64,000 bases of DNA from an uncultured Pseudomonas sp. (GCF_913774235.1 NZ_CAJYDW010000008.1:26787-90786); one strand, 5' to 3'. Counted from the stretch's first letter, positions 21,395-22,501 are shown. The notes: a model not told the origin generated them from the sequence alone. Program-made: numbers and translations.

Positions 21395-22501
21395 CTATTG
21401 CTGGATCGTCGCCCGGTTGCCCTGGCCGCTCTGGCGCAGACTCAGGCCATTGCCTTCGCTCAGTTGGCTGACGACGGCGTACTGGCCCACGCCCTGCTGG
21501 CTGACCTCGACGCGCGCAGCGCTGACCAGCGCAGCCTGGAAGGCGTTGCCATCGCCGAGTTGCTCGACGCCGAGTTCGACGTTGTCGCCCACCCAGACCG
21601 CACTGATCTCGTTATCGTTGCCTTGGGAAGCCAGGGTCAGGCGGGAGTCGTCACCGCCGATCAAGACGCCGGCGCTGTTGCGATTACCCTGCTGTTGCAG
21701 ATCGAGGCGGTTGCCATTGCCAGTCACGCTTACCTGAACGGTATTGTCGTCACCGAGCTGTCGCGCGCTGACGCTCTGGGGGCTGGTGTCGAGGCCGTTC
21801 TGCTGCACCGCCGCCTGGTTGCGATTGCCAATCTGGGTCAGCTGGACGTCCTGTTGCCGCGCGCCCTGGCGAGCGCCTGCCCGGTTGTCCTCGCCGCGTT
21901 GCTCGACCACTGCCCGGTTGGCAGCGCCGCCTTGCAGCAGCTCCACCTCGTTGCGTACGCCCAGGCTCAGTACGTCCTGAACGTGATCCTCGCCTACCTG
22001 CCTGAGTCGCGCGGCGCTGTCGCGACCGTCCTGGAACAGATTCAGCTCGTTGCGCGCGCCCTGTTGCTCGATGCGCAGGCGCTGGTCATCGCCACCCTGG
22101 CGTACCAGGGCTTCGCTCTGCAGGCCGTTCTGAACGATTTCCACCTGGTTGCGCTGGCCATGGCCCTGATAGACATAGGCGTGGCTCTGGCTGGCCTCGC
22201 GCTGGTCGATGGCGACCTCGCGCGCGCCGCCGGCGGCCTGGGTGACATTAGTGAAATTGCCCACGCCACCCTGCTCGACGCGGGTGCGGTCACCCTGGGA
22301 ATCGCTTTGGGTCAGATAGGCCTGGCTGGCACGACCGCGCTGGATCACTTCCAGGGTGCCCTGGCGAGCGGTGGCGTCCTGGGTCAGGAATGCGCCCAAC
22401 CGGTCGCCGCGCTGATCCACGAGGGTCTGGTTATCCAAGGCCCAGGCGGTGCTGGTCAGGCCGAGCAGGCCTAGGCAGGTCAGGAACTTGGGGGTAGGCA
22501 C
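21395..22501 (-). CDS. Secreted 368-aa curlin-repeat protein (giant CsgA/CsgB-like)
   Basis: GTG start and signal peptide MPTPKFLTCLGLLGLTSTAWA. More than 20 consecutive Q-x-G-x-x-N-x-A-x-x-x-Q type units follow (QGGVGNFTNVTQ, QQGARNELNLFQ, QGGAANRAVVEQ, QIGNRNQAAVQQ, QSGQGNRATIQQ...). Confidence 0.75.
   Translation of the reverse strand: MPTPKFLTCLGLLGLTSTAWALDNQTLVDQRGDRLGAFLTQDATARQGTLEVIQRGRASQAYLTQSDSQGDRTRVEQGGVGNFTNVTQAAGGAREVAIDQREASQSHAYVYQGHGQRNQVEIVQNGLQSEALVRQGGDDQRLRIEQQGARNELNLFQDGRDSAARLRQVGEDHVQDVLSLGVRNEVELLQGGAANRAVVEQRGEDNRAGARQGARQQDVQLTQIGNRNQAAVQQNGLDTSPQSVSARQLGDDNTVQVSVTGNGNRLDLQQQGNRNSAGVLIGGDDSRLTLASQGNDNEISAVWVGDNVELGVEQLGDGNAFQAALVSAARVEVSQQGVGQYAVVSQLSEGNGLSLRQSGQGNRATIQQ

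Follow-up and report, generated by a model that had tools for sequence, protein, structure and literature searches.

We analyzed a 64,000-nucleotide stretch of DNA from an uncultured Pseudomonas sp. (GCF_913774235.1, NZ_CAJYDW010000008.1:26787-90786), hereafter the window, whose source genome belongs to the Pseudomonas oryzihabitans group, and focused on one of its genes, c1, which lies directly downstream of the biotin gene bioD and encodes a protein built of curlin repeats. That c1 truly belongs to the curlin (CsgA/CsgB) family is, in our view, nearly certain. On balance, and with modest confidence, we favor a fuller reading as well: that c1 encodes a Sec-exported curlin of about 15 repeats that would form curli-type fibers, that the gene is native to its clade and dispensable in some lineages, and that its secretion genes csgEFG would act in trans.

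Family membership and repeat architecture of c1

The c1 open reading frame (ORF) stood exactly as it had been drawn in a first-pass annotation made from the sequence of the window: 368 aa on the minus strand, with a GTG start (Table 1). The start codon and the N-terminus were kept in every orthologue that we aligned. Curlin_rpt (PF07012) was the only Pfam family matched by c1, in six stretches, with a score of 74 bits (E = 9e-21) against a gathering cut-off of 20.7; the annotation had named this profile search as a check on its curlin call, and the match bears the call out. NCBIfam returned CsgA (105.6 bits) and CsgB (75.1 bits) and nothing else. A phmmer search of the Protein Data Bank (PDB) placed 8c50 first (E = 1.8e-19), followed by E. 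coli CsgA (8enq, E = 1e-4). Orthologues of c1 in Pseudomonas oryzihabitans / psychrotolerans are already labelled ‘curlin’ by NCBI/RefSeq.

The protein begins with a signal peptide, MPTPKFLTCLGLLGLTSTAWA/LD (the slash marks the predicted cleavage site), in which inspection by eye showed a basic residue, a hydrophobic core of 15 residues and a cleavage motif of the A-x-A type. This is the n-, h- and c-region layout of a Sec signal; orthologues were alike, and the annotation’s claim of a signal peptide held when judged from the sequence. An AlphaFold2 model gave predicted local distance difference test (pLDDT) values below 50 at residues 1–15. The GC content of c1 was 0.666, compared with 0.663 for the window.

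The mature protein resolved into a stack of 31 strand motifs, spaced 11.27 aa apart on average. Each motif takes the form (N/S/Q)-x-hydrophobic-x-hydrophobic-x-Q, and the linkers between motifs are four-residue X-G-X-X arcs; the motif pair found in c1 is the curlin repeat as defined by Sleutel et al. 2023 (PMC10192328). Position 7 was Gln in 26 of the 31 strands, and position 1 was Asn in 15/31 and Ser or Gln in 8/31. Positions 3 and 5 were occupied by Ala, Val, Leu, Ile, Thr or Phe except in strand 14, which has Gln at position 3. Both terminal motifs were regular strands, and neither end showed an obvious cap. The annotation had counted more than 20 repeat units; it was right that they are curlin units, but its count does not stand, because those units are half-repeats of 11–12 aa and the 31 motifs make 15.5 repeats of about 22.5 aa each. 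Its description of the protein as ‘giant’ was likewise overstated: published CsgA homologues carry 4–62 repeats, with secondary maxima near 15 and 22, and there are up to 30 curlin genes per genome (PMC10192328). Tandem Repeats Finder detected no DNA-level tandem repeats in c1, and the repeats are therefore old and diverged.

The Gly-rich N22 targeting segment of the E. coli type was not present in c1, where the mature N-terminus opens with the strand motif LDNQTLVDQ. N22-like segments are the exception among curlins (Sleutel 2023, PMC10192328). The feature is therefore not family-defining.

The composition of mature c1 was strongly charged (R 8.9%, D 6.9%, E 5.2%, K 0%), with a net charge of −11; the values for E. 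coli CsgA are R 1.5% and E 1.5%. The annotation had called the richness in Arg, Glu and Asp unusual for a curlin, which is correct relative to E. coli CsgA but not relative to the curlin family. Charged residues occupied 3/124 inward positions, 34/93 outward positions and 35/128 arc positions, a placement that fits what a beta-solenoid would require.

Predicted fold and assembly

The AlphaFold2 model of full-length c1, computed from an eight-sequence alignment, was all-beta with strands every ~11 residues (pLDDT 84.1, predicted template modeling score, pTM, 0.79), and the five full-length models ranged from pLDDT 76 to 84. The proposed fold draws mainly on homology and on the inward/outward residue pattern, to which the AlphaFold2 prediction by itself adds tentative support. 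Taken together, the Pfam match, the homology to 8c50, the inward/outward pattern and the all-beta model support the beta-solenoid, amyloid-type curlin that the annotation had proposed.

By homology to solved curli subunits, the stacked c1 motifs would make up a two-sheet beta-solenoid with 15.5 layers. Its inward faces would be lined by Asn, Gln and small hydrophobic residues, whereas Arg, Glu and Asp would lie on the surface. Subunits of this kind would be expected to dock head to tail and to build extracellular curli-type amyloid fibers.

Secretion genes

The annotation had reported that no csgC/D/E/F/G-like gene is recognizable in the 64 kb, and our searches agreed. Neither Pfam scans of the predicted ORFs nor six-frame phmmer and tblastn searches with the E. 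coli Csg proteins detected csgC, csgD, csgE, csgF or csgG in the window. The ORF scan left out znuC (about 10032–10768, minus strand), and that region was covered by the six-frame search. Contigs carrying identical proteins extended the view, with no csg accessory gene found for ~7 kb past the left end of the window or for 3.5 kb past the right; in eight related species, too, none was found closer than 10 kb to c1.

Separation of curlin subunit genes from their secretion genes is documented in the genus. In P. putida F1, BIRD-1, GB-1, KT2440, S16 and W619, csgA/B lie 66–475 accession numbers away from csgE/F/G, and P. stutzeri strains carry three extra curlin genes away from the csg operon (Dueholm 2012, Table S1, PMC3521004). 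Most Pseudomonas csg loci also have no csgD nearby (Dueholm 2012, PMC3521004). We found solitary curlin genes without csg neighbors in Stutzerimonas azotifigens and on one other long contig. Because other Pseudomonas split csgA/B from csgEFG, the absence of csgEFG from 64 kb carries little weight. The annotation’s further suggestion, that c1 is ‘non-canonical’ and uses an unknown export route, is unsupported: its sole basis was the absence from 64 kb, loci are split in P. putida and P. stutzeri, and the length of c1 is within the published range. By analogy with those two species, export of c1 across the outer membrane would most likely proceed via a CsgG/E/F set encoded elsewhere.

A search with E. 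coli CsgG returned Enterobacteriaceae only, and no Pseudomonas CsgG, among the best 120 matches listed. A HMMER search with CsgG over 1.84 billion representatives gave at least 150 CsgGs, and a cluster look-up of 10 of these named one Parapusillimonas protein. In the survey of Sleutel 2023 (PMC10192328), CsgG was present in all but 1033 of 43279 CsgA-containing genomes, about 98%.

Distribution and selection

Close relatives of c1 (77–89% identity) were confined to the P. oryzihabitans group, and c1 was at most 31% identical to any curlin outside this clade. Of 185,579 species genomes scanned, those of eight species carried c1, including P. oryzihabitans NBRC 102199, a second P. oryzihabitans strain, P. 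aestiva and P. benzopyrenica. In all eight, the gene sat in the same order, bioD-c1-orf88-MCP, where orf88 is a small ORF downstream of c1 and MCP is a chemoreceptor gene. The ratio of nonsynonymous to synonymous substitution rates (dN/dS) was 0.27–0.41 for c1, as compared with 0.07–0.25 for the bio genes; c1 is under purifying but relaxed selection.

Of 19 distinct loci, 14 had an intact c1 ORF (357–370 aa). When metagenomes were scanned with orf88, we recovered four contigs with intact c1 and three in which c1 was deleted between an intact bioD and orf88. The deletions in L022, L023 and L025 were independent, with different junctions and different small remnants. A frameshift was found in the species genome L017 and in the database entries P0005 and P0006, and in-frame contractions had reduced the protein to 244 aa (L003) and 357 aa (L011). 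We concluded that c1 is native to the P. oryzihabitans group and dispensable in some lineages. Searches of the literature on P. oryzihabitans and P. psychrotolerans for curli or csg returned nothing relevant. P. oryzihabitans is known for wrinkled, adherent colonies; a link between c1 and this colony phenotype is speculative.

Alternative readings

Several observations weigh against the reading of c1 as an exported, fiber-forming curlin. Its scores lie under the NCBIfam equivalog cut-offs for CsgA (NF007470, 105.6 vs 160 bits) and CsgB (NF007506, 75.1 vs 165 bits). The genes c1 and c2, the latter a second curlin-repeat gene in the window (Table 1), are each solitary, with no adjacent csgBA pair, and csgC/D/E/F/G were found neither in the 64 kb, nor in ~10 kb beyond, nor within 10 kb of c1 in the eight species. 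The gene is often lost, having been independently deleted, frameshifted or shortened in 5/19 loci. Structure prediction, which the annotation had proposed as a check, gave a divided answer, favorable in the all-beta full-length model (pLDDT 84) but not in two other respects. A Foldseek search of that model against the PDB gave no significant match (best E 0.12, with 8c50 ranked 18th); the non-significant matches were all beta-helix or solenoid proteins. Moreover, AlphaFold2 modeled residues 118–241, from a four-sequence alignment, as a single long helix (pTM 0.40), and the prediction for c1 is therefore not robust. The other models of this fragment run were discordant (pLDDT 32–61). We rejected the helical model as an artefact of the shallow alignment, given its pTM and the discordance among models.

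In a different account, the P. oryzihabitans group has no csgE/F/G at all. The products of c1, and of c2 in the strains that have it, would then be orphans that reach the surface by an unrecognized route, or else work in the periplasm or outer membrane; the genes might be expressed as a tail of the biotin operon, and some lineages would have lost them repeatedly. The lack of any accessory gene in ~75 kb around c1, and within 10 kb of it in eight species, is what this account would predict; frequent loss of c1 also fits a subunit without a dedicated exporter, the curlin relatives outside the clade are distant (at most 31% identity), there is precedent in the 1033 orphan CsgA genomes of Sleutel 2023 (PMC10192328), and many Alphaproteobacteria have curlin subunits only. 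We nevertheless consider it rather unlikely, since absence from 64 kb means little where other Pseudomonas split their csg loci, purifying selection and intact ORFs at a synonymous divergence (dS) of 0.4–0.5 imply a working protein, and CsgG is the only known outer-membrane route for a curlin. Loss of the gene could also be taken as a sign that c1 is a decaying relic without present function, given the three independent deletions, the frameshifts in L017, P0005 and P0006, and the contractions to 244 and 357 aa. This is very improbable: dN/dS is well below 1, and the 14 intact loci keep the periodic inward/outward pattern despite about 20% amino-acid divergence.

The charged surface raises the further idea that c1 adopts the curlin fold but does not polymerize. 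It would then be a monomeric or surface-bound beta-solenoid, perhaps with the role of an adhesin or of a charged scaffold for ions or polysaccharides. Charges (R 8.9%, D+E 12%, net −11) are confined to outward positions, the monomer with its 15.5 layers is already about three times the length of E. coli CsgA, and the charged surface of the R15.5 curlin binds Ca2+ and nucleates mineral (PMC10192328). That same R15.5 protein, however, has the 31-strand layout and charged surface of c1 and forms curli fibers in vitro (PMC10192328), and the terminal motifs of c1 are regular strands with no obvious cap, which together make a non-polymerizing c1 improbable. We retain as our preferred reading a Sec-exported curlin whose subunits would form fibers, with csgEFG probably acting in trans.

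Genomic context and proposed transcription of c1

The features of the c1 locus, together with c2, are listed in Table 1.

Table 1. Coordinates of c1, its parts and its neighbors, and of the second curlin gene in the window.
Feature	Position	Strand	Description	Evidence
c1, curlin-repeat protein gene	21395-22501	(-)	368 aa, GTG start	Pfam, PDB, repeat stack
c1 signal peptide	22439-22501	(-)	residues 1-21, AWA/LD cleavage motif	read from sequence
c1 mature repeat part	residues 24-368		31 strand motifs = 15.5 curlin repeats	
bioD, last gene of bioB-F-H-C-D	22578-23249	(-)	directly upstream of c1	Pfam AAA_26/CbiA; orthologues 94-97% identical
bioD-c1 spacer	22502-22577	(-)	76 nt, invariant run GATATCAGTCTTTCGGGCGATGGCCG	alignments
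GC-rich hairpin	22516-22541	(-)	10-bp stem, 6-nt loop, no U-tract	RNA fold
orf88, conserved ORF	21039-21305	(-)	88 aa, 89 nt downstream of c1	dN/dS, synteny
Intrinsic-terminator-like hairpin and T-run	21001-21022	(-)	after orf88	terminator scan
c2, second solitary curlin-repeat gene	43002-43802	(+)	266 aa	Pfam, NCBIfam, repeat stack

The distance of c1 from bioD and the U-less hairpin between them, both given in the annotation, were confirmed (bioD stop at 22578, c1 start at 22501). Between species, the spacer was more conserved than the synonymous sites of the flanking genes, and it includes a 26-nt invariant run, GATATCAGTCTTTCGGGCGATGGCCG, directly after the bioD stop. In this strain, the hairpin lies within a longer stem that reaches the c1 start codon (−47.1 kcal/mol, z = −3.9). 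The spacer stem was 88% paired across nine species, with no compensatory changes for any spacer helix among them. We rejected the long stem as a device for sequestering the start codon, as it was not conserved and lacked such changes. An Rfam search of positions 20900–22800 returned no match in the spacer, and the sole match with E ≤ 1 was BjrC68 at 20994–21075 (16.8 bits vs a gathering cut-off of 39).

We found no sigma-70-like promoter in the spacer, and inspection by eye showed no convincing sigma-28, sigma-54 or AlgU motif there. The only hairpin-plus-T-run terminator in positions 20900–22900 was the one after orf88, which stands between that gene and the convergent MCP gene. Because no sigma-70-like promoter was found in the spacer and the sole terminator follows orf88, it is plausible on the sequence that transcription of the bio operon runs on into c1 and orf88. 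The bioBFHCD transcript may be the source of at least part of the c1 mRNA and stop at the terminator downstream of orf88.

The dN/dS of orf88 was 0.08–0.23, and it is therefore a real gene. Its product lacks a signal peptide, neither Pfam nor the PDB gave a relative, and its only NCBIfam match, TIGR04209, was far below threshold (14.1 vs 45 bits). PDB matches to designed ‘Pizza’ proteins look spurious, and a resemblance to YjfB-type small proteins had no Pfam support. In every case the gene comes after bioD or c1, and loci with c1 deleted still carry it.

The second curlin gene and other features of the window

The first-pass annotation did not mention c2, which is in the same window. This gene lies between a rep/uvrD-type helicase gene and a lipoprotein-like ORF, and its product matched Curlin_rpt in nine stretches (E = 8.4e-33). 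Its NCBIfam score was higher for CsgB (94.1 bits) than for CsgA (72.9 bits), and neither reached the equivalog cut-offs (165 and 160 bits, respectively). The repeat stack contains about 21 strand motifs, or 10.5 repeats, with two long arc insertions. We judged it unlikely that c2 is a lipoprotein on account of its LFGC motif, as the hydrophobic stretch runs on to an AAA/N cleavage site. Among 5.8 billion database proteins there was one close homologue (98%), and no other exceeded 32%; c2 is much rarer than c1. Convergent with c2 is the lipoprotein-like ORF of 236 aa (43807–44517, minus strand), which carries an LLLSAC motif and an internal duplication (INDFTNEDW... / INDFTNQDW...) and had no Pfam or NCBIfam match. 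The same ORF adjoins c2 in L009 too.

Two adjacent genes encode secreted glycoside-hydrolase-like proteins of 340 aa (36206–37228, plus strand) and 861 aa (37511–40096, plus strand). In the larger, a glycoside hydrolase family 5 (GH5) cellulase domain is accompanied by a linker rich in Thr and Gly, two DUF4214 domains and, at the C-terminus, a domain that is a paralogue of the 340-aa protein; this type of domain had a weak GH53 match. A cluster of palindromes resembling repetitive extragenic palindromic (REP) elements, CCCTCTCCC...GGGAGAGGG, lies at 40100–40800, and a 164-nt unit occurs three times between the GH5 and rep helicase genes.

Elsewhere in the window, a GT4-family glycosyltransferase gene (8003–9166, plus strand) had a GC content at third codon positions of 0.55 vs about 0.85 in the genome, and was probably acquired horizontally. 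A three-gene cluster at 61658–63902 (minus strand) encodes a protein without an assigned family, a holin-X-like membrane protein (Phage_holin_3_6) and a DUF3618 protein, and is conserved in the related contigs L030–L032.

Comparison with known systems

The family, length class, charged surface, and separation of subunit and secretion genes that we describe for c1 are all already documented, and c1 adds one lineage-specific long curlin to a family with a known span of 4–62 repeats. If the clade is truly without CsgG, c1 would give Pseudomonas research a tractable model of how a curlin is handled independently of CsgG, and its natural deletion and contraction variants would be ready-made controls.

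The best PDB sequence match of c1 is R15.5 of Pontibacter korlensis (PDB 8c50; PMC10192328). The two proteins are alike in size class (R15.5 has 355–363 aa in PDB entries), in their 31 strands with a terminal half repeat, in motifs a and b that are near-identical (the centrosymmetric type), and in a highly charged surface. They differ in that the charge of R15.5 is acidic only (20% D+E, isoelectric point about 3), whereas c1 mixes Arg with Asp and Glu. Identity between them by Foldseek is 15%, their superposition is non-significant, and R15.5 comes from a different phylum.

E. coli CsgA/CsgB (PF07012; 8enq) share with c1 the Sec signal peptide, the strand-arc-strand motif and the Q/N ladder. 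In contrast, CsgA has 5 repeats rather than 15.5 and a Gly-rich N22 segment that c1 lacks; Arg and Glu are far more abundant in c1, which has no csgB, csgC or csgDEFG alongside. The curli of P. putida, P. fluorescens and P. stutzeri (PMC3521004) belong to the same genus or family as c1. The subunit genes of P. putida lie far from csgEFG, as c1 would, P. stutzeri has extra solitary curlin genes like c1, and at those loci, as at c1, csgD is not close by. In those species csgEFG are demonstrated, whereas the comparison for c1 covers the 64-kb window and its flanks. The solitary curlin gene of Stutzerimonas azotifigens resembles c1 in its context-free location. Lastly, the Fap system offers a functional parallel, since FapC is a secreted, repeat-based amyloid subunit of Pseudomonas biofilms, as predicted for c1; it belongs, however, to an unrelated family with its own fapA-F operon, whereas c1 matches Curlin_rpt only.

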